A program made the translations under genes and the position numbers. Shown one piece after another: positions 2,870 through 52,017 of a stretch of 52,919 bases of DNA (position 1 is its first letter; every line of letters begins with the position of its first letter). Origin of the DNA: a virus (lineage: Duplodnaviria > Caudoviricetes); IMG/VR virus record IMGVR_UViG_3300022223_000005, positions 1-52,919 of that record. One strand, 5' to 3'. The notes beneath the pieces are model-generated. The model was not told the DNA's origin, did not search any database, and saw only the letters and a program-made list of their open reading frames with translations.

Positions 2870-3706
2870 TCATCTTGATCCAGTATAAGTTTTATGTACA
2901 TGATCATGTTTTTTATGATCATTTTTTTTATTTGGTGATTTGATCCAATTTGCGTTCAATCTTTCAAGTCTTGCAAACAAAATTTTTGTTTCAAATTTTA
3001 TTTCTTCAGTAATGCATATAGAATTGAAATTAATCTTGAAAACTTCAAAATTCTCAAAACTTGATTTATTTTTAATTTCAAAAGTTTCAATTCTAGATGG
3101 GCTTTCTTTTTTTAAAAAATCATAAGCCTCTAAATCTTCTTTTAAAAAAACATCTTTTTTACTTGTGTTTTTTTCTTTTGTTTCTTTTTTTAAAAGAATA
3201 TCACTATCACTATCACTAACACTATCACTAACACTATCACTAACACTTACACTTACGGTATGATTCGTATCAGTTCGTATACCATCGTATACGGTCGTAT
3301 CATTTTGCGTACCATCGTATACGGTCGTATCATTTTGCGTACCATCGTATACGGTCGTATCATTTTGCGTACCATCGTATACGGTCGTATCATCTTTTGT
3401 ACCATCGTATACGATTGTATCATCTTGTGTATTTTTTAGTTCGATAGAATTTTTCTTTTCCCATCGTTTTTTTATGTTTTTTCTGTTTTGCTCTTTTTTA
3501 GCCTCCCATTTTTTCAAATCCCTTTTTAATGTTTCCATTATTGAAGGGAATACAAATCTTATTACATCTTCATCGCTTTTAGGGTCAATGTCGTTTACAT
3601 ATTTCAATATGTGTTTTATTAATACACCTGCCTCTGAATCTGTTAAATTGTCAAATGTGCTCATCCAATCGCAATAAGCTGTAAATGATTTTTTTCCTTC
3701 TGCCAT
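2870..3706 (-). CDS. phage replication initiator (DUF6291-like N-terminus)
   Basis: MAEGKKSFTAYCDW..LTDSEAGVLIKHI N-terminus, internal tandem repeats, low-complexity VSDS linker. Confidence 0.7.
   Translation of the reverse strand: MAEGKKSFTAYCDWMSTFDNLTDSEAGVLIKHILKYVNDIDPKSDEDVIRFVFPSIMETLKRDLKKWEAKKEQNRKNIKKRWEKKNSIELKNTQDDTIVYDGTKDDTTVYDGTQNDTTVYDGTQNDTTVYDGTQNDTTVYDGIRTDTNHTVSVSVSDSVSDSVSDSDSDILLKKETKEKNTSKKDVFLKEDLEAYDFLKKESPSRIETFEIKNKSSFENFEVFKINFNSICITEEIKFETKILFARLERLNANWIKSPNKKNDHKKHDHVHKTYTGSR
3281..3430. repeat. five 30-bp tandem repeats, candidate origin iterons
   Basis: ACCATCGTATACGGTCGTATCATTTTGCGT-type units starting at 3281, 3311, 3341, 3371, 3401, each with a CGTATACG palindrome. 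Confidence 0.8.
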
Positions 3707-5264: not shown

Positions 5265-7367
5265 TTAGATTTCTTTGTAAAATCCTTGAAACCTTACCAG
5301 TCCATGGTATTCTGGTGAGCTTATAAGGCCATCACCTTTGCCTCCCAATGTTTCGGCACCACCTTGATCAAGAACTACCTTTGAATCTATCTCACGGGAA
5401 ACCCTAAAGCATATTTGAACTGGAAAATTAACCTTTGCATCACCAGATATTACTTTTACAGATGCTCGTTGTGTTGCTGCTATTACTCTAAATCCTAACG
5501 ATCGCCCTTTTTGAAGTATCATTTTCAAATTTTCTTCCAAAGACTTTTTTCGACCAACCGTTTGAAGTTTCATTTTGGGTTTAGGTGGTCCTAAATCTCC
5601 TTTTTTCTGTGCATAAAAACCAACCTCCACCATTTCTTTTACGTCTAATTCACGCCCCTTTTTTGATGAGTCCAAAGCGTCTGCAAATTCATCGAAAACA
5701 ATAAATGTTTTCTTTGTACGTCCAGTCTTTGTTAGTAATTGCATTTGTTCAACTAGTTTTTCCATCTCAATCTCAATCTTATCAATATCTCTTATAACTC
5801 TTACAATGCCCTGGCACTTGGTGTTAAATTCATTTTTAGGATCAAATATTATTATTTCGTCATAATCTAACAACTTCGCATATTCTATTGTTGAATTTAT
5901 CATAACCGATTTTCCTGATCCAGTGGACCCACATACTAATGCGTGAGCTGTTGCCGGATTTTCAACATCAAAATAAACAACATTATTGAAGTTGTCCATT
6001 CCTATAGGAATTTTACCATCAATCAAATACTTCGGGTCGTAACTCAATACCTTATCGTTTTTCTTTCCACATTCCAAATGAATATACGACTTCCCATCAT
6101 ATACTTTCAATTGTGTGTCTATTCTTATGCTTGAAACGTCTAGCGCGCTTGCAATGTCTAATTTGTATTTAAAGATTTTATTCAAGGTAGTACCTGCTGA
6201 TACACTCAAAAGAAATGCATCACTTGAATAACCCTCGAAAAAGTGTTCAACCTTCACCACCAATCCTAGTGAGCGTAATATATGTTCTATTTTTTCAGTT
6301 TTGTTCATGTCTTTATTTGTTAGATCGTATAAAATAAATTCAGATGCATTTTTTCTGAATGTCTTTATAATTTTGGGGTTAATGGATGCCGTTGATGCAT
6401 CACGTATTTTTTTTAATCTTCTCGAGATGATATCTTTTTTAGATTCATCAACATTGAATTCATCAATTTCTGCAATCATTGTTTTGGACCAAAAAGCATG
6501 CATATGTTCCTTGCTTACAAACGTGTCATTTTCATTCATTAAATACACGTAATCTGGATTCGAAACGGCTTCGATCATGCGTTTTAATGGCTCGTATAAC
6601 ATTGCTTCGTATAACTTTACAGTGTCATTGTCCATTGGCATTTTAAAGCAATTCAATTGAGGTGATCCATCTCTATTTTTTGAATACTTGTTTTCAATAA
6701 ACCAAACCTCATCAGCTATTATGTTCATTTTAGCTTCCAAAACCTTGTAATAAGTTATGGCTTGTTTTCCAATTGACAAAGCCAATTCCTTTTCATCGGA
6801 AAAACAATTTTTTGACTTATGATCAATTATTATCGTTTTTCCTTCTGAAGTTTTTGCTATTAAATCAATTTTAGCATGACAAGGCAATGGAATGTCAACA
6901 CCGTTTATTTGAAGAAACTCATTAAAATAGTCCTCAACCGATATGACTTCAACAATATCATATACAGAAATGTCATTTATAAAGTTTTCTAACAACTTTG
7001 AAACTATTGAAGATGCTTTTATTTGGCATTCTGATATTGTCTTTGTTGTTTTTTGAAGCTTCCAGATATTTGCCTTAACATTGTCAATGTATTCAAATGC
7101 TATTTTCTCCAAGTCAACTAGGTCAAGTGTTAAGTTATCCTTTTTGTTTATAAAATACCTTTCCAAAGCTGCATGATATGCGTTACCCGCAACCGTTGAT
7201 GAACTTGATTTCGATCTTTCATTGTAGATATAGTTCATTTCAAAAGCTTTTTCATTTCTGGCAAAAGACATTACTTTTGAATAACTCCAACTATTTACAA
7301 GAAAGTTAGAATATAGCTCGTCATATTCTGACGAGCTTAAATTTGAATATTCGTGTATGTGTTTCAT
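5265..7367 (-). CDS. PD-(D/E)XK nuclease fused to an FtsK/SpoIIIE ATPase
   Basis: N-terminal SWSYS..GNAYH..KIDLI..IIDHKS; C-terminal HALVCGSTGSGKS, FDEFAD, AATQR, GAETLGGKGDG. Confidence 0.85.
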   Translation of the reverse strand: MKHIHEYSNLSSSEYDELYSNFLVNSWSYSKVMSFARNEKAFEMNYIYNERSKSSSSTVAGNAYHAALERYFINKKDNLTLDLVDLEKIAFEYIDNVKANIWKLQKTTKTISECQIKASSIVSKLLENFINDISVYDIVEVISVEDYFNEFLQINGVDIPLPCHAKIDLIAKTSEGKTIIIDHKSKNCFSDEKELALSIGKQAITYYKVLEAKMNIIADEVWFIENKYSKNRDGSPQLNCFKMPMDNDTVKLYEAMLYEPLKRMIEAVSNPDYVYLMNENDTFVSKEHMHAFWSKTMIAEIDEFNVDESKKDIISRRLKKIRDASTASINPKIIKTFRKNASEFILYDLTNKDMNKTEKIEHILRSLGLVVKVEHFFEGYSSDAFLLSVSAGTTLNKIFKYKLDIASALDVSSIRIDTQLKVYDGKSYIHLECGKKNDKVLSYDPKYLIDGKIPIGMDNFNNVVYFDVENPATAHALVCGSTGSGKSVMINSTIEYAKLLDYDEIIIFDPKNEFNTKCQGIVRVIRDIDKIEIEMEKLVEQMQLLTKTGRTKKTFIVFDEFADALDSSKKGRELDVKEMVEVGFYAQKKGDLGPPKPKMKLQTVGRKKSLEENLKMILQKGRSLGFRVIAATQRASVKVISGDAKVNFPVQICFRVSREIDSKVVLDQGGAETLGGKGDGLISSPEYHGLVRFQGFYKEI

Positions 7368-8047
7368 TATGGTAGGTTTTCAATTTTATCTTTCATAGTC
7401 TTTTTTTTATCTTCAACAGTTTGAGGTTTAACCTCAATTACCTCCAAATCACTTGCATCACCATCCCCAATTTCACACCCTGTTATAGTGTTAAATAGCC
7501 AAGCTCTTGCCTTTCTTGTTGCTTTTCCTATTACCGCATCAGTTCCCATTAATTTGTTAACTTTTATAGGTATATCCATTGACGACTTATTTTTGTTGCC
7601 TCCATCTATTGACCATTGTATGTCCATAACAATTGCTGCACTAGTACTTTCGCTGTTTATCCTTGGAAGATTTGGAACTATGTTGTACCAAAGCCCTTTC
7701 TGCTTTGATAACAGGTGCTTAAATCCTTCTTTTGTTATGTAGCATTGACCCTTTATGATGTTGAATTGATTACCAACAGGCTCAACACCTGTCAATACAG
7801 CTTCAATAAGACAGTTTTTAACAATATCTAAGCTGTAACCTCCATCTTTGTCCCTGTCTGTCTTAAAGCCAAGCTTATTTCCTTGTAAATCCATAATAGG
7901 TTTCATGTAATTGTCGTTTAACAACGTTTTTAATTCACCTACGGCCTGAGCAACCACATAAGCCTTTTTAAATCCGTGTATAGCATCATCACCTATTACA
8001 GATAATACTTGATCGTCTAGTTTCTTAATAATTTGATTTTCTTTCAT
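7367..8047 (-). CDS. putative ssDNA-annealing recombinase (RecT-like)
   Basis: Coupled to the exonuclease gene; CLIEAVLTGVEPVGNQFNII..KATRKARAW. Confidence 0.5.
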   Translation of the reverse strand: MKENQIIKKLDDQVLSVIGDDAIHGFKKAYVVAQAVGELKTLLNDNYMKPIMDLQGNKLGFKTDRDKDGGYSLDIVKNCLIEAVLTGVEPVGNQFNIIKGQCYITKEGFKHLLSKQKGLWYNIVPNLPRINSESTSAAIVMDIQWSIDGGNKNKSSMDIPIKVNKLMGTDAVIGKATRKARAWLFNTITGCEIGDGDASDLEVIEVKPQTVEDKKKTMKDKIENLP

Positions 8048-8080
8048 TGTGTTATTTTTAGTTTTTAAATTTCATTATTA

Positions 8081-8141
8081 TATTAGTATTTTTTATATAT
8101 TTGTAATCTCGAAAAGAGATAACCAATCTTTCGATTTTTTT
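8081..8141 (+). promoter_or_regulatory. promoter and 5' hairpin module of omegaRNA cassette 1
   Basis: TATATTTG (-7 element) at 8096-8103, then hairpin TCGAAAAGAGAT..ATCTTTCGA; 61 nt identical to 46672-46732. Confidence 0.7.
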
Positions 8142-8142
8142 A

Positions 8143-8259
8143 AACATTTTGGTTCGGGCAGAGCCAATGTTCGTTAACGTGGTGCATTAGCACGAGCGTT
8201 GAGCAAGAATCCCCTAGTCTTTAGATGTGGGAGTGTCAATTCTACAGGTATTGTAATCA
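8143..8259 (+). ncRNA. stand-alone TnpB omegaRNA/reRNA copy 1 (guide about TTCTACAGGTATTGTAATCA)
   Basis: 8143-8212 identical to 26327-26396 at the tnpB 3' end; right-end hairpin and GTGTCAA ending at 8239; no IS left end or tnpB nearby. Confidence 0.8.
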
Positions 8260-8270
8260 TATCTATTTTT

Positions 8271-8606
8271 TTAAGAGGTTATTAATGATAATTGATGAAT
8301 CCTATCTTCAATAGTAAATGCGTTTTCATTATTCGAATTTGTTTCATCTTCTATTATTTCGACCTCATCAAATATCATCTGAGTGAACTTGCTTTTCAAT
8401 TGGTCCGAAAGTTCGATAGCATTCATACTTGAAAGACTTATAAATTCATCTACGATCAATTCACAAGATGCTTCGAAGTCTATATGAAAAGATATGTGAT
8501 AATCTTCAGTTGTGGAAGACATACCCACTAATGATAATGATTGTCCTGAATCGCATTTTAATTGACTTGTAAGCTTAGAAAGCTTTGTTTGTTTAATTGG
8601 TGGCAT
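8271..8606 (-). CDS. hypothetical protein
   Basis: 111 aa ORF with a TATATTTG promoter on the minus strand at 8638-8645. Confidence 0.55.
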   Translation of the reverse strand: MPPIKQTKLSKLTSQLKCDSGQSLSLVGMSSTTEDYHISFHIDFEASCELIVDEFISLSSMNAIELSDQLKSKFTQMIFDEVEIIEDETNSNNENAFTIEDRIHQLSLITS

Positions 8607-8898
8607 ACAATTATTTATTATGTTGTTATTGACAATGCAAATATATGAATATTTTTGAATAATATTGCTGTTTTCAGTAATATTTTTAAGTCTATTCTTT
8701 ATTTATAATCTTTCTAAATAAGTGATTGCATCAAATTAAAGATAGTAAAAAATATTTAATACACAGTGTAATAGGTAGGAAACCGTTGTTTTACTTGGAA
8801 TTGCAAACTATACTAAAAACTTTTTTAACTAAAATACGGTAAACCATAACCGAGTTACGGAAAATAGTTGTATGTTTGCATTGAACAAATAATATACA

Positions 8899-9138
8899 AT
8901 GGAAAAAATCGATCAAATTATTGTAAACTTATTAGCAACCGGAATGACTCAAAAAGAAGTTGCTGAACATTTCAAATCAAAAAACATACTCCCTTCAAGT
9001 GTGTCCATAATTGAAAAAAGAATGAAAAAAATAAAAAAGAATTTTCACGCTAAAACATCAATTCAACTTGGCGTAACACTTGTAAGATTGGGCTACATAT
9101 ATAAAAGCCCAGGGCGTGCATTAAAAATGAGACCATAA
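8899..9138 (+). CDS. LuxR-like HTH protein
   Basis: LLATGMTQKEVAEHF..SIIEKRMKKIKKNFHAKT; preceded by TATGTTTG. Confidence 0.7.
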   Translation: MEKIDQIIVNLLATGMTQKEVAEHFKSKNILPSSVSIIEKRMKKIKKNFHAKTSIQLGVTLVRLGYIYKSPGRALKMRP

Positions 9139-14743: not shown

Positions 14744-15730
14744 ATGAAAACATACACAGGAAATTTAGTCATAACAAAAGAAAATTATAATAATTTTAAA
14801 GAACTTGTAGAAGTTTCTGGTTCCATCGACGTTAGGGAGAACGCAACACTGACAGCGCCTAAGTTGGAGAAGTCTGGTTACATCTACGTTATGAAGAACG
14901 CAACACTGACAGCGCCTAAGTTGGAGAAGTCTGGTTCCATCGACGTTAGGGAGAACGCAACACTGACAGCGCCTAAGTTGGAGAAGTCTGGTTACATCGA
15001 CGTTAGGGAGAACGCAACACTGACAGCGCCTAAGTTGGAGAAGTCTGGTTACATCTACGTTAGGGAGAACGCAACACTGACAGCGCCTAAGTTGGAGAAG
15101 TCTGGTTACATCTACGTTATGAAGAACGCAACACTGACAGCGCCTAAGTTGGAGAAGTCTGGTTACATCGACGTTAGGGAGAACGCAACACTGACAGCGC
15201 CTAAGTTGGAGAAGTCTGGTTACATCTACGTTATGAAGAACGCAACACTGACAGCGCCTAATTTGGAAATTAAAAGTAACGTTGCCAAGATAAACGACAA
15301 GAAATACAGAGTAATACATAACGATGGAATTGCATTCTTTGTCGAAAGAAGCAGGACAACGAAAGGTATGAATATCCATTATGGTATAATGAGTATCAGT
15401 TGTTCCGAATTAGAAATAACAAGCAAAGAGGCTTTTGTAGTGGATAAGGACGGGTTCAGTGCGCACGCAGAAACCTTGAAGGAGGCCATTGTCGAATTGA
15501 ACTTCAAAATAGTTGCAGAGAAATTAAAGAACGACCCGATACACGAAAACACATTGATTACGGACAACTACTACAGATCTGTAACTGGAGCTTGCAAATT
15601 AGGAATAAAACAATGGAGGGAACAAAACAACATAACCTCTGAGGAAATAACAGCAAAGGAATTGCTTCCAATTCTTGAAAAAACAAAAGCGTACGGACTA
15701 AACAGATTCAAAAAGCTAATTGAATTTTAA
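14744..15730 (+). CDS. 20-aa repeat (beta-solenoid-like) protein
   Basis: About 7.5 copies of SG(S/Y)I(D/Y)V(RE/MK)NATLTAPKLEK; C-terminal YRSVTGACKLG domain. Confidence 0.75.
   Translation: MKTYTGNLVITKENYNNFKELVEVSGSIDVRENATLTAPKLEKSGYIYVMKNATLTAPKLEKSGSIDVRENATLTAPKLEKSGYIDVRENATLTAPKLEKSGYIYVRENATLTAPKLEKSGYIYVMKNATLTAPKLEKSGYIDVRENATLTAPKLEKSGYIYVMKNATLTAPNLEIKSNVAKINDKKYRVIHNDGIAFFVERSRTTKGMNIHYGIMSISCSELEITSKEAFVVDKDGFSAHAETLKEAIVELNFKIVAEKLKNDPIHENTLITDNYYRSVTGACKLGIKQWREQNNITSEEITAKELLPILEKTKAYGLNRFKKLIEF
14814..15266. repeat. 60-bp tandem repeat, about 7.5 units
   Basis: Near-identical units varying at three positions. Confidence 0.9.
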
Positions 15731-15761: not shown

Positions 15762-15798
15762 TTGACACTACCAAAATATTTAGGTGGGGGAGTGTCAA
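15762..15798. mobile_element. 37-bp palindromic IS-end minielement (degenerate RE/RE)
   Basis: TTGACACT-ACCAAAATATTTAGGTGGGGG-AGTGTCAA, right half identical to the IS right end. Confidence 0.75.
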
Positions 15799-24625: not shown

Positions 24626-24691
24626 ATTATAATATTTTTTAAGTAAATACTATTTCTATGTTCAAATTATTGGTGGCTAATTTTATAAAAC

Positions 24692-24729
24692 TTCAGGCAT
24701 CTATGCTAATATACGATTAATTTTAATTT
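24692..24729. repeat. 38-bp direct repeat (copy 1), putative duplicated leftward promoter
   Basis: TTCAGGCATCTATGCTAATATACGATTAATTTTAATTT identical to 27245-27282. Confidence 0.85.
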
Positions 24730-24775
24730 TTGACACTCCCCCACCTAAAGACTTGGGGATAAAAGAATGACACGT

Positions 24776-25186
24776 CTACTTAGGTCTATTTTGTTGTTCA
24801 ATGTACTTTTTAACGACGTCAAGTGTAGCACCTCCAACGCTTCCAGCGAAGTAACTAGGAGACCACAGCGCGCCTTTGTAAAAACTACTTGAAAGACTTG
24901 GATAGTTTTGCTTTAAACGCCTAGAGGTAACACCCTTAATTGCATTTACTAGTTTTGAAACAGATACTTTTGGAGGATAGTCGATCAGTAGGTGTATGTG
25001 GTCACCCTCACCATTGAACTCTTTTAACACGCAATCTTTTTGCTCGCAAATAACTCGTGTTACATCTTCAATGTACTGTAAATGAATAGATTTAAGAACG
25101 TTGCTTCTATATTTTGTGACGAACACTAAGTGTACGTGCATTAAAAAAACGCAATTTCTTCCCTTTCTGATTTGTTTGTTTAACAT
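24776..25186 (-). CDS. tnpA: IS200/IS605 HUH Y1 transposase
   Basis: HLVFVTKYR, DHIHLL (HUH), KGVTSR, LWSPSYF, KYIEQQ catalytic Tyr. Confidence 0.97.
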   Translation of the reverse strand: MLNKQIRKGRNCVFLMHVHLVFVTKYRSNVLKSIHLQYIEDVTRVICEQKDCVLKEFNGEGDHIHLLIDYPPKVSVSKLVNAIKGVTSRRLKQNYPSLSSSFYKGALWSPSYFAGSVGGATLDVVKKYIEQQNRPK

Positions 25187-25189
25187 TAA

Positions 25190-26374
25190 TTGTATAATTT
25201 AGACCCATTAATTAAAAGCGTGAATTTAATAATAAAATCATATAAATACAAGTTAAAGACCAATAATACTCAGTATGAAATACTGAATAATTGGATCAAT
25301 ACTTGTCGTGCGGTGTACAATCTATCTTTGGAAACTAAGATAGAGGCGTACAAAACTAGGCAGGTATCTCTTAGTAAGTATGATTTAATGAAACAACTCC
25401 CTGAATTAAGGAATGAATTTGAATGGATCAAGGACGTTCCATCACAGTCTATGCAAAATGTAGTCGAACGCCTTGATGCTGCTTACAAGAAGTTTTTTAA
25501 AGGAGGCGGTTTTCCTAAATTCTCAAAGAAAGGAGCATACAAATCCATTCTGTTCAAACAAGGTGTAAAATACAGTAAAACACACGTAACATTTCCTAAG
25601 ATTGGCAAAATAAGATTCTTCAATTCTAAAAACATACCAAATGGATCAAAGATAAAAACAGCAATAGTAAGAAAAGAAGTAGATGGATTCTACATTAGTA
25701 TAGTAGTAGAGCAGATTACAGAAAAAAAACATTTCAATCCAAAAAGTGATAACCAAGCTGTAGGAATTGATATGGGTGTAAGTAAGTTCTATTCGCTTTC
25801 TACTGGAGATTCAAAAGAGAACCCAAGGGTATTGAAGTCATTTGAAAAAGAAATGAGAATTGCTCAAAGGTCACTTTCTAGGAAGGTGAAAAAATCAAAC
25901 AACTGGTACAAGCAACTTAAAAAAGTACAAAAGATTCATCTTAAAATAGGTCGTGTTAGAAAAGACTTTAGCCAAAAAGCAAGTACGGAACTAATAAGTA
26001 GTTTTAGCAAAATAGCCGTTGAAGATTTGAAGCTTAAGAATATGACAAAATCATCAAAGGGCGATTCAGAAAACCATGGTAAAATGGTCAAGCAAAAATC
26101 TGGGTTGAACCGTGTGATTTTAGATGTTGGTATAGGTGAGTTCTTTAGACAACTAGACTACAAGTCCAAATGGTACGGAAGGGAGTTTGTAAAGGTAGAC
26201 CCAAAATACACCTCTCAAACTTGCAGTGATTGCTCTCACAAGTCAAAACAAAACAGGAAAACACAATCAAAATTTGAGTGTGTAAACTGTGGTCACAAAG
26301 AAAATGCGGATATAAATGCCGCGAAAAACATTTTGGTTCGGGCAGAGCCAATGTTCGTTAACGTGGTGCATTAG
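25190..26374 (+). CDS. tnpB: RNA-guided endonuclease TnpB
   Basis: RuvC I GIDMG, RuvC II VEDL, zinc finger CSDC..CVNCG, RuvC III NADINAAKNI; all three acidic residues present; the true start may be GTG 25220. Confidence 0.97.
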   Translation: MYNLDPLIKSVNLIIKSYKYKLKTNNTQYEILNNWINTCRAVYNLSLETKIEAYKTRQVSLSKYDLMKQLPELRNEFEWIKDVPSQSMQNVVERLDAAYKKFFKGGGFPKFSKKGAYKSILFKQGVKYSKTHVTFPKIGKIRFFNSKNIPNGSKIKTAIVRKEVDGFYISIVVEQITEKKHFNPKSDNQAVGIDMGVSKFYSLSTGDSKENPRVLKSFEKEMRIAQRSLSRKVKKSNNWYKQLKKVQKIHLKIGRVRKDFSQKASTELISSFSKIAVEDLKLKNMTKSSKGDSENHGKMVKQKSGLNRVILDVGIGEFFRQLDYKSKWYGREFVKVDPKYTSQTCSDCSHKSKQNRKTQSKFECVNCGHKENADINAAKNILVRAEPMFVNVVH

Positions 26375-26443
26375 CACGAGCGTTGAGCAAGAATCCCCCA
26401 GTCTTTAGGTGGGGGAGTGTCAAAAAATTTCTTCAAATTCTAA
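26327..26443 (+). ncRNA. native omegaRNA/reRNA (guide about AAAATTTCTTCAAATTCTAA)
   Basis: Overlaps the tnpB 3' end and right end; stems TTGGTTC/GAGCCAA, TGC/GCA, CCCCC/GGGGG; 5' boundary inferred from the copies. Confidence 0.8.
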
Positions 26444-27208: not shown

Positions 27209-27244
27209 GTTTATATGTGTTCAAATAAGCACAATGCGCAATAA

Positions 27245-27282
27245 TTCAGGCATCTATGCTAATATACGATTAATTTTAATTT
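27245..27282. repeat. 38-bp direct repeat (copy 2)
   Basis: Identical to 24692-24729. Confidence 0.85.
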
Positions 27283-40031: not shown

Positions 40032-40487
40032 CTATTTGTTATTTTTAGGTTTTGGGCCTCTTTTCTTAGGCTTAACATCTTCCACAACCTTTTTAGGTTT
40101 ATTTGGTTCAACTGGATCGATTGGATCGATTGGATCGATTGGATCGATTGGATCGATTGGATTAACTGGATCAACTGCATCGATTGTATTAATAGCTTCA
40201 ACCGGGTCTATTGGCTCAACTTCAACGTTAATTTCAGTTGATTTTTTCAACTCTTCCAATTCGCCTTTAACTTTTAACGGTTCTTCTTGTGATGTGTCCA
40301 ATTGCCCTTTTAAAACAGGGTAATCTTTTACGATTTCATTTATTTCTTGTGACAACTCAGATTCATCAACCTCAATGTCGCCTTTAATAAATGTGCATTT
40401 CAATCCATATCTGGAAATCATCAACCTCATACGAGTATTGATGATTTCCAGTTTATCTTCTCTACCTTCAAAAATTAACTTTCCCAT
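40032..40487 (-). CDS. hypothetical protein with DPI repeats
   Basis: 9-bp GGATCGATT tandem repeat at about 40114-40160; basic KKRGPKPK tail. Confidence 0.6.
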   Translation of the reverse strand: MGKLIFEGREDKLEIINTRMRLMISRYGLKCTFIKGDIEVDESELSQEINEIVKDYPVLKGQLDTSQEEPLKVKGELEELKKSTEINVEVEPIDPVEAINTIDAVDPVNPIDPIDPIDPIDPIDPVEPNKPKKVVEDVKPKKRGPKPKNNK

Positions 40488-45353: not shown

Positions 45354-45390
45354 TTGACACTCCCCCACCTAAAGACTGGGGGAGTGTCAA
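45354..45390. mobile_element. 37-bp palindromic IS-end minielement (RE/RE)
   Basis: TTGACACTCCCCCA-CCTAAAGAC-TGGGGGAGTGTCAA with 14-bp perfect arms. Confidence 0.85.
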
Positions 45391-45430
45391 AGATTTTACG
45401 CACTTGTATATATATTGGAGTTAGCTGCAA

Positions 45431-45799
45431 TTAATTTTTTACGATTTCGCATTCCATAAGTCCGTCATAATTTGCTAACCTTTCGCTTAAAAATCCCCCA
45501 ATACTTTCCCATACATCATCAGTCCATCCCTCTTTCAAAATGGTTCTAAATTCATAGAAAGTATCAAAGTCCGTGTCTTGTATAAAAAAGCATCCAGAAT
45601 TTAGTAATAGTTTGCCTTTTCCGTTTACTTCTAAATCAAAGTACTTGTCTTTAAAGTAAGAGTCACCAAAGTAGGCTACAAAAAAACCATTTTGAACCCT
45701 TGCTATCTTCCAATCAAAGTCATTTTCATCTTGGTACGTATGGCATTCTTGGTATTGTTCCGTATTGGGAAATTTTTCGATGGGCATTGAGTATATCAT
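45431..45799 (-). CDS. hypothetical protein (cassette-like)
   Basis: 122 aa; bounded by GTTAGCTG/CAGCTAAC. Confidence 0.6.
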   Translation of the reverse strand: MIYSMPIEKFPNTEQYQECHTYQDENDFDWKIARVQNGFFVAYFGDSYFKDKYFDLEVNGKGKLLLNSGCFFIQDTDFDTFYEFRTILKEGWTDDVWESIGGFLSERLANYDGLMECEIVKN

Positions 45800-46484: not shown

Positions 46485-46529
46485 TTGACACTCCCCCACC
46501 TAAAGTGAGGGGGTTTTTCGAAGACGGTG
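46485..46529 (-). mobile_element. 45-bp single-hairpin LE/RE hybrid minielement (PATE-like)
   Basis: Minus strand TTAT|CACCGTCTTCGAAAAA-CCCCCTCACTTTAGGTGGGGG-AGTGTCAA. Confidence 0.85.
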
Positions 46530-46671
46530 ATAAGTTCGTTCTGTCTTGTTTTAATTTTTCAATCTTATGTTTTAATTCCATAGTTTTTGCATATTTAAAA
46601 CACAAATCTACAAATTTAAATTTGATTTTTTATTAATTTATAATAATTAAAGTCAAATGCAATCATAATTG

Positions 46672-46732
46672 TATTAGTATTTTTTATATATTTGTAATCT
46701 CGAAAAGAGATAACCAATCTTTCGATTTTTTT
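46672..46732 (+). promoter_or_regulatory. promoter and 5' hairpin module of omegaRNA cassette 2
   Basis: Identical to 8081-8141; TATATTTG at 46687-46694. Confidence 0.7.
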
Positions 46733-46733
46733 T

Positions 46734-46850
46734 AACATTTTGGTTCGGGCAGAGCCAATGTTCGTTAACGTGGTGCATTAGCACGAGCGTTGAGCAAGAA
46801 TCCACTAGTATTTAGATTGTGGAGTGTCAAATATTTGTACAATGATTGAT
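46734..46850 (+). ncRNA. stand-alone TnpB omegaRNA copy 2 (guide about ATATTTGTACAATGATTGAT)
   Basis: 46734-46803 identical to 26327-26396; variant hairpin and GTGTCAA ending at 46830. Confidence 0.8.
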
Positions 46851-47120
46851 AAAAACACACCATTATTAAGACTAAAAAAAATACTAAAAGAAAAAGGTAT
46901 TAAATCAGTGGACTTTGCTAAACAAATCGGAGTCACGGAAAACACTGTATCAAATATCAATAATGGGAAAACGTTGCCGAAAATTCAACTACTTGTCAAA
47001 ATTGCAAATGTGTTAAACGTTGATATTAGGGATTTGTTTAATCCTACAAAGAATGTAACGACTAAGGATTTAATTAATAAAGGTAAAAATATATTTAATC
47101 AACTGGAACAGAAAATATAA
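46842..47120 (+). CDS. XRE-family HTH regulator
   Basis: LRLKKILKEKGIKSVDFAKQIGVT..LVKIANVLNVDIRDLF; ATG at 46842. Confidence 0.85.
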   Translation: MIDKNTPLLRLKKILKEKGIKSVDFAKQIGVTENTVSNINNGKTLPKIQLLVKIANVLNVDIRDLFNPTKNVTTKDLINKGKNIFNQLEQKI

Positions 47121-47860: not shown

Positions 47861-47880
47861 ATTTTTTTGTTTTAGTTTAT

Positions 47881-48031
47881 CACCGTCTTCGAAAAACCCC
47901 CTCACTTCAGGAGGGGGATAAAAGAATGACATATTTAGTTTTGGTTCGGGCAGAACCAATGTTCGTTAACGTGGTGCATTAGCACGAGCGTTGGGCAAGA
48001 ATCCCCCAGTCTTTAGGTGGGGGAGTGTCAA
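47881..48031 (+). mobile_element. 151-bp non-autonomous IS200/IS605 derivative (left end plus omegaRNA/right end)
   Basis: TTAT|CACCGTCTTCGAAAAA-CCCCCTCACTTCAGGAGGGGG-ATAAAAGAATGACA joined to the scaffold and right end; ATAAAAGAATGACA is shared with 24759-24772. Confidence 0.88.
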
Positions 48032-49232: not shown

Positions 49233-49422
49233 AATGTTTGTGTGTATGTGTGTGTGCCTACTCTAGTTCATCTTTTCGGCTTTCGATGTTTGATTTATAT
49301 TTTATAGTACGTTATGTCTATGATTTTTGTTTGTTGCTTTCATTGGTGTATTGTTTATTAGTTGTGTGCAATATACAAATTAATAACACATAATCTACTA
49401 TAAATACAAGTTTAATTTGTAT

Positions 49423-51807: not shown

Positions 51808-52017
51808 AGTTCATTGTTTTTGTTTTAATAGATTTTCAGTACTTGCATATATATTGGAGTTACATCCAATTAATTACTTCTCGTATTTGGTGTTTTGTCA
51901 AAGCTTTCATTATCTATTTTTTTGTTGTTAATTTTAATTATTCGTTTTACACCTGATGTGAACTACCCACATTTTGTTCTATATCTTCAAATTGGTTACA
52001 GCAATATTCAGTTTTTT

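Follow-up and report, generated by a model that had tools for sequence, protein, structure and literature searches.

The window analysed here is a virus record of 52,919 bases, about half complete by the CheckV estimate, with a G+C content of 32.6% and with structural and replication genes that include portal, major head, terminase-like and DNA-polymerase-exonuclease genes. It contains a complete IS200/IS605 element, three further copies of the right end (RE) of this element, and hairpin tips related to it that stand alone (Table 1).

Table 1. Features of the IS200/IS605 element, its derivatives and their surroundings, in window coordinates
Feature	Position	Strand	Description
Cassette 1, 5' module	8072..8142	+	not IS-derived; TATATTTG 8096-8103; hairpin 8109-8134; T7 run 8135-8141
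Cassette 1	8143..8239	+	scaffold 8143-8209 as native; hairpin 8210-8232; tail 8233-8239 unchanged
Cassette 1, guide position	8240..8259	+	flanking DNA; assigned by position only
Second solo palindrome	15762..15798		less perfect; between convergent genes
Complete IS200/IS605 element	24730-26423		carries tnpA and tnpB
Native left end	24730..24773	+	inverted copy of right-end tip (TTGACAC + hairpin), then GGGGATAAAAGAATGACA
tnpA	24776..25186	-	Y1 (HUH) transposase, 136 aa; Pfam Y1_Tnp, E=4.6e-42
tnpB	25190..26374	+	RNA-guided nuclease; Pfam OrfB_IS605, Cas12f1-like_TNB, HTH_OrfB_IS605
Native 97-nt unit	26327..26423	+	stem A (loop GGGCA), stem B, hairpin 26394-26416, tail GTGTCAA
Solo perfect palindrome	45354..45390		TTGACACTCCCCCA..TGGGGGAGTGTCAA; right-end tip on both strands
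Lone hairpin + GTGTCAA	46485..46533	-	no scaffold; inverted copy of flank + hairpin 47877-47918
Cassette 2, 5' module	46663..46733	+	TATATTTG at 46687-46694
Cassette 2	46734..46830	+	scaffold as native; hairpin 46801-46823, 6 changes; tail unchanged
Cassette 2, guide position	46831..46850	+	overlaps start of regulator gene (ATG 46845)
XRE-type regulator gene	46845-47120		Pfam HTH_3; PHROG transcriptional regulator or repressor families
Fourth copy, PATE-like mini-element	47877..48031	+	left-end-like part + right end (about 93-97 nt, 47935-48031)

The predicted TnpA spans the whole Y1_Tnp profile (positions 1-121 of 121), with HIH and SPSYF motifs present in the translation. The TnpB domains include a zinc ribbon and an HTH, and the protein aligned to ISDra2 TnpB (8bf8) with E=2.3e-43. 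In this alignment a D, an E and a D of TnpB coincide with the RuvC motif positions of ISDra2 TnpB, which we take to be residues 191, 278 and 361. Judged by their sequences, both tnpA and tnpB look intact.

The closest proteins to TnpB overall, encoded on ENA and Logan contigs, were 77-58% identical to it. Within genome_contigs the closest was 48% identical and came from a Francisella MAG, and the closest in viral_contigs were 27-55% identical over parts of the protein. Its closest named relatives belong to the Bacteroidota (Ekhidna, Microscilla and Tenacibaculum, at about 50-54% identity). The motif TAnnTTTG, which in flavobacteria forms the sigma-A box between -12 and -5 (PMC9723704), recurs in the spacers of the window, which hold 19 of its 91 occurrences and make up 12.7% of the window. 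Given these relatives and the recurrence of the box in spacers, the host is therefore probably a member of the Bacteroidota. Among 401 sampled Bacteroidota genomes, none contained a TnpB match at E<=1e-90, a result that concerns those sampled only.

The left end of the element is an inverted copy of the right-end tip, so that the element is bounded by 34-nt terminal inverted repeats (97% complementary), a layout that is not known from IS608. The left end also shares an 18-nt exact match with the left part of the mini-element (47877-47934), a match reached by none of 1000 shuffles. The native RE finishes with ..GAAT-CCCCCAGTCTTTAGGTGGGGG-AGTGTCAA at 26423. Right ends of relatives follow the same plan (GAAT, a CCCC..GGGG hairpin, AG, one or two bases and TGTCAA) in Francisella, Rickettsiaceae and Parabacteroides MAGs and in Aneurinibacillus, and with variation in a thaumarchaeal MAG; six right ends from Francisella, Rickettsiaceae, Parabacteroides and Aneurinibacillus genomes terminate in ATGTCAA.

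The last 97 nt as predicted guide-RNA scaffold and candidate TnpA site

The consensus fold of the 97-nt unit consists of stem A, stem B and the RE hairpin, with 28 predicted pairs; a search of Rfam with the unit returned no family at the gathering score or at E<=10. The GGGCA loop of stem A is invariant in relatives and its helix varies (GGUUC/GAGCC here, GAGGCA/UGUCUC in Parabacteroides, UCGUU/AACGA in Rickettsiaceae), a covariation that was read by eye, the gaps in the MAFFT alignment being inconsistent with the helices. The tail UGUCAA is invariant in relatives as well, and GGCA of the loop can pair with its UGUC. In the omega RNA of ISDra2, base pairing of positions -5 to -3 with a loop further upstream creates a pseudoknot, stem 4 lies between the tail and stem 2, and the WED domain of TnpB contacts stem 4 (PMC10097598). 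By analogy, a tail-loop pseudoknot would form in the 97-nt unit. By its position, at -30 to -8 from the guide, the RE hairpin is the putative equivalent of stem 4, and would thus be part of the RNA as well as a TnpA site.

In IS608, TnpA binds a subterminal palindrome whose foot is preceded on the 5' side by a 4-nt guide, and cleaves after TCAA (PMC3201880). The RE hairpin occupies the corresponding position: GAAT precedes the foot on the 5' side, and the element closes with TCAA. This agrees with the first-pass annotation of the window, which had called the hairpin TnpA-binding, but that label is incomplete, in that by position the hairpin would also be the stem next to the guide in the omega RNA.

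The scaffold overlaps the last 16 codons of tnpB, whose stop codon (26372-26374) lies inside it. Over stems A and B the TnpB C-terminus is unusually conserved: the end ..NVVH is found in 10 of the 12 next-best homologues (P0002-P0013), which are 58-77% identical overall. This conservation fits a second constraint imposed by the RNA. Just upstream of the 97 nt, the native copy has a hairpin GCGG..CCGC that carries G-C, T-A and C-G at one pair across three lineages. It is absent from the cassettes, whose IS-homologous part begins 6-8 nt ahead of stem A, and a cassette RNA may be incomplete without it.

Two cassettes share a 5' module and lack a left end

A 67-nt core was found four times in the window with no more than three mismatches, compared to none expected from 100 shuffles. 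The native copy and the two cassettes had been recognized as copies previously, and all three are present; the fourth, at 47935-48031, had been missed. All four copies lie in the same orientation and end with ..AGTGTCAA, and their flanks diverge from the next base on. The right border of the cassettes is the exact RE cleavage position, which suggests that the copy was made by a TnpA-type cut. Neither cassette has a recognizable left end, and no tnpB sequence lies upstream.

Instead, each cassette is preceded by a 71-nt module, 68 of whose positions are identical between the two. Comparison of this 5' module with either left end or with the 3' end of tnpB gave no significant similarity (against the left ends, 103/500 and 58/500 shuffles scored equally). 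Because the cassettes share this non-IS module and the same junction, we consider that the earlier proposal of a common ancestor holds, and that derivation of both from one ancestral fusion is supported by the sequence. The sample consists of two cassettes on one metagenomic contig.

The octamer TATATTTG in the module fits the TAnnTTTG -7 box of Bacteroidota and lies 39 nt before the scaffold in both cassettes. From its position, transcription is predicted to start near 8108 and 46699. TATATTTG occurs 11 times in the window, twice in the cassettes, and four of the other nine copies are found in spacers, at 25-64 nt ahead of a gene start. A sigma-70 promoter scan, which does not cover Bacteroidota promoters, gave nothing useful. 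A hairpin and T7 run between the box and the scaffold could stop transcription and count against a role of the cassettes as guide RNA genes. A search for RNA runs holding this stretch returned none; the sole run found is DNA, probably from the source sample.

Between the end of cassette 2 and the ATG of the XRE-type regulator gene, which runs in the same direction, lie 14 nt. This placement, together with the -7 box, would agree with a cis-acting promoter and leader module in which the IS-derived RNA serves as a 5' leader at cassette 2 and as an antisense RNA or insulator at cassette 1, with TnpB uninvolved. The situation of cassette 1, which lies antisense within the 223-nt spacer of a minus-strand gene pair, can be accommodated in the same way. 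However, cassette 1 has no downstream gene on its own strand, and a leader function gives no reason for a border at the RE cleavage site or for change in the hairpin only. We consider this explanation improbable.

A repeat of 97-168 nt with four occurrences in one metagenomic contig could also invite an assembly or sequencing artefact. We find this hardly credible. In a Logan assembly, record 7 (8185-9100) connects the variant hairpin of cassette 1 with the right flank and record 1 (7300-8110) connects the 5' module with the left flank, each with 0 differences, so that the contigs bridge into unique flanking DNA; these contigs are an independent assembly of the same reads, from the probable source run, and so bear on the assembly and do not represent a second sample. 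Read depth over the repeat is 3 to 3.4x that of the flanks, as real repeats would give in these same reads, and it contains a hint that the 5' module is present a third time.

Several searches were made for related loci. Using blastn with positions 8060-8260, we found no homologous DNA in GenBank phages. Exact-match scans, from which the window's own record may be excluded, returned no scaffold 30-mer or 5'-module 27-mer in viral_contigs and no scaffold 20-mer in metagenome_contigs. The covariance model (R1) had no match in phages found through neighbouring proteins (6 loci + 1). In two related phages (L022, L023) no comparable spacer was present upstream of the homologous gene; synteny with them is too loose for an empty-site call.

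The fourth copy presents the opposite pattern to the cassettes: its hairpin is intact and its scaffold is changed at columns 21 and 60 of the alignment described below (47955 and 47994). The predicted pairing survives both changes, U.G becoming U-A in one case and U-A becoming U.G in the other. Its left part comprises a hairpin CCCCCTC..GAGGGGG plus TAAAAGAATGACA. A target motif TTTAT, proposed from the comparison of TTTAT|CACCG at the left-end start of the mini-element with TTTAT|CAAACCG at the left end of a Francisella IS, was rejected as not significant (182/1000 shuffles equal).

The lone hairpin on the minus strand matches positions 47877-47918 of the mini-element over 42 nt with 95% complementarity. 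The distance from this left-end-like tip (46485) downstream to the 5' module of cassette 2 (46663) is 130 nt. The perfect palindrome has a predicted energy of -25 to -27 kcal/mol as RNA, and a similar palindrome was seen in a Francisella MAG with a related IS (L034).

Changes in the cassettes cluster in the right-end hairpin

In a 97-column alignment (A1), the native unit and both cassettes are identical over columns 1-70 and 88-97, and the tail AGTGTCAA (columns 90-97) is unchanged in both cassettes. Cassette 1 differs from the native unit at three columns, C73T (8215), G83A (8225) and G86T (8228), and cassette 2 at six, C71A (46804), C73T (46806), C77A (46810), G83A (46816), G85T (46818) and G87T (46820), with C73T and G83A common to both. 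The alignment therefore agrees with the first-pass annotation on the 70 invariant nucleotides, the numbers of hairpin differences, the two that are shared, the preserved end, and the confinement of all differences to the hairpin.

Counted as independent events, 7 of 7 changes fall inside the 23-column hairpin (columns 68-90). The probability of such clustering is 4.2e-5 under a uniform distribution across the 97 columns and 1.6e-4 when change is restricted to the 49 G/C sites, 14 of which are in the hairpin. It had been proposed, as a signature of domestication, that selection keeps the function of the RNA while recognition by the transposase is relaxed or lost. This interpretation is supported in part, by the common ancestry of the cassettes, their missing left end, the apparently intact TnpA and TnpB, the IS608-like position of the hairpin and the concentration of changes there; the data do not establish selection on RNA function, however, and "relaxed" misdescribes the change in recognition. 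Between the cassettes, the scaffold differs at 0/67 positions versus 3/71 in the non-IS 5' module (Fisher P=0.25); the invariance of the scaffold is statistically uninformative, and recency of the copies accounts for it equally well. The hairpin, with 5/23 differences, has changed faster than the 5' module (P=0.02) and faster than all other positions taken together (3/145; P=0.001). Since this exceeds what relaxation would give, the excess points to positive selection or a local mutation process.

The same annotation had described a compensatory pair in cassette 2. C71A and G87T do convert a C-G pair to A-U, but when six G/C-to-A/T changes are placed at random in this hairpin, 37.5% of the sets contain a compensatory pair (P=0.38). 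Predicted hairpin energies are -13.2 (native), -8.7 (cassette 1) and -5.7 kcal/mol (cassette 2) as RNA, and -7.5, -1.7 and -2.8 kcal/mol, respectively, as DNA. The native and fourth copies have a 7-bp stem of -7.5 kcal/mol as DNA; the cassettes keep GAAT and have a weaker stem. Random G/C-to-A/T mutants carrying equally many changes were at least as stable in 292/1000 (cassette 1) and 111/1000 (cassette 2) cases as RNA, and in 578/1000 and 74/1000 cases as DNA. The variant hairpins are thus no stabler than random mutants, and so give no sign that an RNA helix has been preserved.

The properties of the changes favour the main rival to the reading put forward below, namely that the cassettes are decaying orphan right ends, a duplicated spacer plus IS end without RNA function. 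Under this explanation, which we regard as unlikely though well worth weighing, the scaffold is unchanged since the copies are young, and the hairpin changed by local mutation or through selection against TnpA nicking alone. A mutational route would be provided by the G-run in an extruded hairpin. G-to-T and C-to-A changes are typical of oxidised guanine; 5 of the 7 events are G:C-to-T:A and all 7 remove G/C. The unexceptional stability of the hairpins, the chance-level compensatory pair and a scaffold no more conserved than the 5' module all agree with decay. So does variation elsewhere: a Rickettsiaceae MAG holds three copies of a related right end with three different 3' arms of the hairpin, and its two long copies otherwise differ by only 2 substitutions and one 8-nt insertion in about 190 nt. 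Variable hairpins may therefore be a general feature of this IS family.

Other observations weigh against simple decay. The sequence GGAGTGTCAA has nine exact copies in the window, and the full G-run (TGGGGG/CTGGGGG) precedes seven of them, the other two being the cassettes. Of the G's in the run, 3/10 are changed in the cassettes versus 0/35 in the seven intact copies (P=0.008, the sites being not independent), so that the run is not generally unstable. Two of the intact copies, the native and the fourth, have a left-end partner, and the other five lack GAAT 5' of the foot. Consequently, the only partnerless right ends with GAAT, hairpin and TCAA are the two mutated cassettes. In addition, the fusion point immediately precedes the first conserved omega RNA stem, a -7 box of the phage type lies at the same distance upstream in both cassettes, and the depth hint of a third 5' module would mean that the unit has been kept or spread.

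A different origin of the variant hairpins would be that they are normal right ends of a sister IS with another TnpA specificity, acquired by recombination. Interrupted G-run hairpins do occur in distant relatives (GGTGGG in Parabacteroides, L013; GGTGAGGG in Aneurinibacillus, L019). Nevertheless, the two cassettes differ from each other at five hairpin positions and so do not represent one sister form, and their scaffold is 100% that of the resident IS. We therefore regard a sister element as very improbable. A search for such an element with a degenerate pattern covering both hairpins and their inferred ancestor gave 0 matches in metagenome_contigs and 0 in viral_contigs; this blank is a weak one because the scans were exact-match and the same collections also gave no scaffold sequence of the resident IS.

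Proposed disarmed orphan ends, possible trans-acting guides and known systems

Our tentative preference, held at somewhat less than an even chance, is that the cassettes are orphan right ends disarmed against the phage's own intact TnpA, possibly doubling as trans-acting guide RNA genes. In this scheme, a phage spacer with a Bacteroidota-type promoter box would have been joined to the last 97 nt of the phage's IS200/IS605 element, leaving right ends that lack a left end while the phage still produces TnpA. As long as its cleavage signals are all present, an orphan end could be nicked by TnpA, and if paired with a same-strand left end elsewhere it could lead to excision of many kilobases of phage DNA. 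By reference to the mechanism of IS608, such risks would favour variants with a damaged hairpin, and seven independent G/C-to-A/T changes have accrued there and nowhere else; TnpA would presumably no longer act on the variant hairpins. The promoter box, the scaffold, the tail and a weakened stem are left, from which an RNA could still be made and taken up by the IS-encoded TnpB, thereby providing two extra guides in trans.

The guide role in particular is favoured by the promoter box, by a junction placed immediately ahead of stem A, by retention of the tail and by the intact tnpB. The weakened stem 4 and the missing upstream hairpin count against it, as does the outcome of target searches, which also agrees with decay: within the window the guides had only weak, chance-like matches (up to 3/16 or 5/20 mismatches), and neither 20-nt guide occurred as an exact 20-mer in viral_contigs, from which the window's own record may be excluded.

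A more ambitious version of the guide role is a phage multi-guide system, in which one nuclease-active TnpB would be served by several immobilised, promoter-driven guide RNA genes whose TnpA-binding hairpins have been wrecked. It is conceivable that such a system cuts co-infecting relatives that lack the cassette, as RNA-guided homing, or cuts host DNA. We judge this version rather doubtful. If it were true, it would represent a natural intermediate between the guide RNA of a selfish transposon and a CRISPR-like guide set serving its carrier.

Should the cassettes function as guide RNA genes, they would represent a transposon guide RNA uncoupled from transposition while the nuclease is still used, and the route would have been loss of the left end, gain of a promoter and disabling of the transposase hairpin. 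To our knowledge, such uncoupling has been assumed, and not documented, as a step in the evolution of host- or phage-owned RNA-guided systems from TnpB. As a natural experiment, the cassettes would also help to separate the bases of the shared hairpin that TnpA needs from those that TnpB needs. If they are only the disarmed orphan ends of our preferred reading, they would still illustrate, on a small scale, how selection acts against stray substrates of a transposase when a phage genome is compact.

The RE resembles that of IS608 in that GAAT corresponds to the 4-nt guide, a subterminal hairpin follows, and ..GTGTCAA lies 3' of the hairpin, and it differs in that TCAA is 3 nt from the foot, compared to 10 nt in IS608 (He et al. 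2011, PMC3201880). Like the ISDra2 omega RNA, the 97-nt unit would have a guide-adjacent stem (stem 4) and a short tail pseudoknotted to an upstream loop; its scaffold, whose structure is predicted, is 97 nt compared to 116 nt in ISDra2, and the 5' region of the ISDra2 omega RNA is dispensable (Nakagawa et al. 2023, PMC10097598). An omega RNA that spans the 3' end of tnpB and the RE describes the native copy, but not the cassettes.

PATEs are protein-less IS200/IS605 elements with an omega RNA, for which service by TnpB in trans has been envisaged (Meers et al., PMC10055086). The cassettes resemble them as protein-less IS605-type derivatives in which right end and scaffold are retained and which would depend on TnpB in trans. 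PATEs have left and right end hairpins and no protein gene, which is true of the fourth copy and not of the two cassettes (PMC10055086). The cassettes differ further from PATEs in their non-IS 5' module with a promoter box and in their mutated RE hairpin. Lacking a left end and with the RE hairpin altered, they are expected from sequence not to be mobilised by TnpA.

TldRs are domesticated, nuclease-dead relatives of TnpB without transposon ends, some of them on prophages (10.1101/2023.11.30.569447). The similarity to the cassettes is that a guide RNA scaffold is kept on a phage, outside a mobile context, with the function of the end lost. In contrast to the dead, adjacent nuclease of TldR systems, the TnpB described here keeps the RuvC D-E-D, is inside a complete IS and is remote from the cassettes, for which no target promoter was identified. 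In the literature searched, we found no description of stand-alone guide RNA genes of this kind; supplements lay outside that search and may bear on the point. The cassettes differ from both PATEs and TldRs in their lack of a left end, their foreign promoter module, their damaged TnpA hairpin and the presence, elsewhere in the same phage, of a putative live-nuclease partner.

Right-end copies and their hairpins

In a Rickettsiaceae MAG, a related right end is present in three copies (loci L029, L031 and L033), one of them an orphan end of 58 nt, with three distinct hairpin 3' arms: GGGGG, GGGAGGGGGG and GGAGGG.

A GCGG..CCGC hairpin lies within the tnpB codons for ADINAA of the native IS, the window's complete IS200/IS605 element. 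At the third pair of this hairpin, the window has G-C, Parabacteroides has C-G, and both Francisella and Rickettsiaceae have T-A. The hairpin may form an extra stem of the omega RNA, the TnpB guide RNA; it is absent from cassettes 1 and 2, the right-end copies that lack a left end and follow a shared 5' module.

Two solo palindromes, sited in spacers after genes, contain the right-end tip on both strands, and a palindrome structure of the same kind was seen in a Francisella MAG with a related IS (L034). Such palindromes may have arisen from right ends by folding back, or they may be elements resembling terminators. One copy of a 46-nt spacer repeat begins directly after a solo palindrome.

Read depth and other features

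In Logan contigs, a separate assembly of reads from the probable source run, read depth was compared around 8081-8212: the depth of the 5' module was 23 versus about 8 for the flanks, and the junction depth was 17 for the cassette 2 type versus 5.4 for the cassette 1 type. These depths hint at a third cassette beyond this half-complete record.

Of the Rfam families, only the DUF805b RNA motif reached its gathering score anywhere in the window, with a single match, and three tandem repeats run in frame within open reading frames.

Features of the window and their positions
Feature	Position	Detail
43-nt spacer repeat	24687-24729; 27240-27282	95% identity
Native IS terminal inverted repeats	24727-24760; 26393-26426	34 nt
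Edges of 1.5-kb block	46485-46516; 48000-48031	
GCGG..CCGC hairpin	26305-26321	
Solo palindromes	45354-45390; 15762-15798	
46-nt spacer repeat	45391-45436; 51830-51875	85% identity
DUF805b RNA motif	49255-49289	minus strand; 38.6 bits, threshold 35.6
In-frame tandem repeat	14759-15381	57 nt x 8 copies
In-frame tandem repeat	3235-3461	30 nt x 6 copies
In-frame tandem repeat	40094-40228	9 nt x 10 copies

Borders and tips of the native IS

One copy of the 43-nt spacer repeat lies directly left of the native IS, and the other is upstream of the next minus-strand gene. This repeat fixes the left border of the element at 24730. The native IS has terminal inverted repeats: read as the reverse complement, its left tip gives the tip of the right end. 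An inverted layout of the same kind is found at both edges of a 1.5-kb block containing cassette 2, an XRE regulator, a DnaQ-like exonuclease and the PATE-like mini-element. To our knowledge, such an inverted-repeat layout of the tips is not usual for IS200/IS605 elements.
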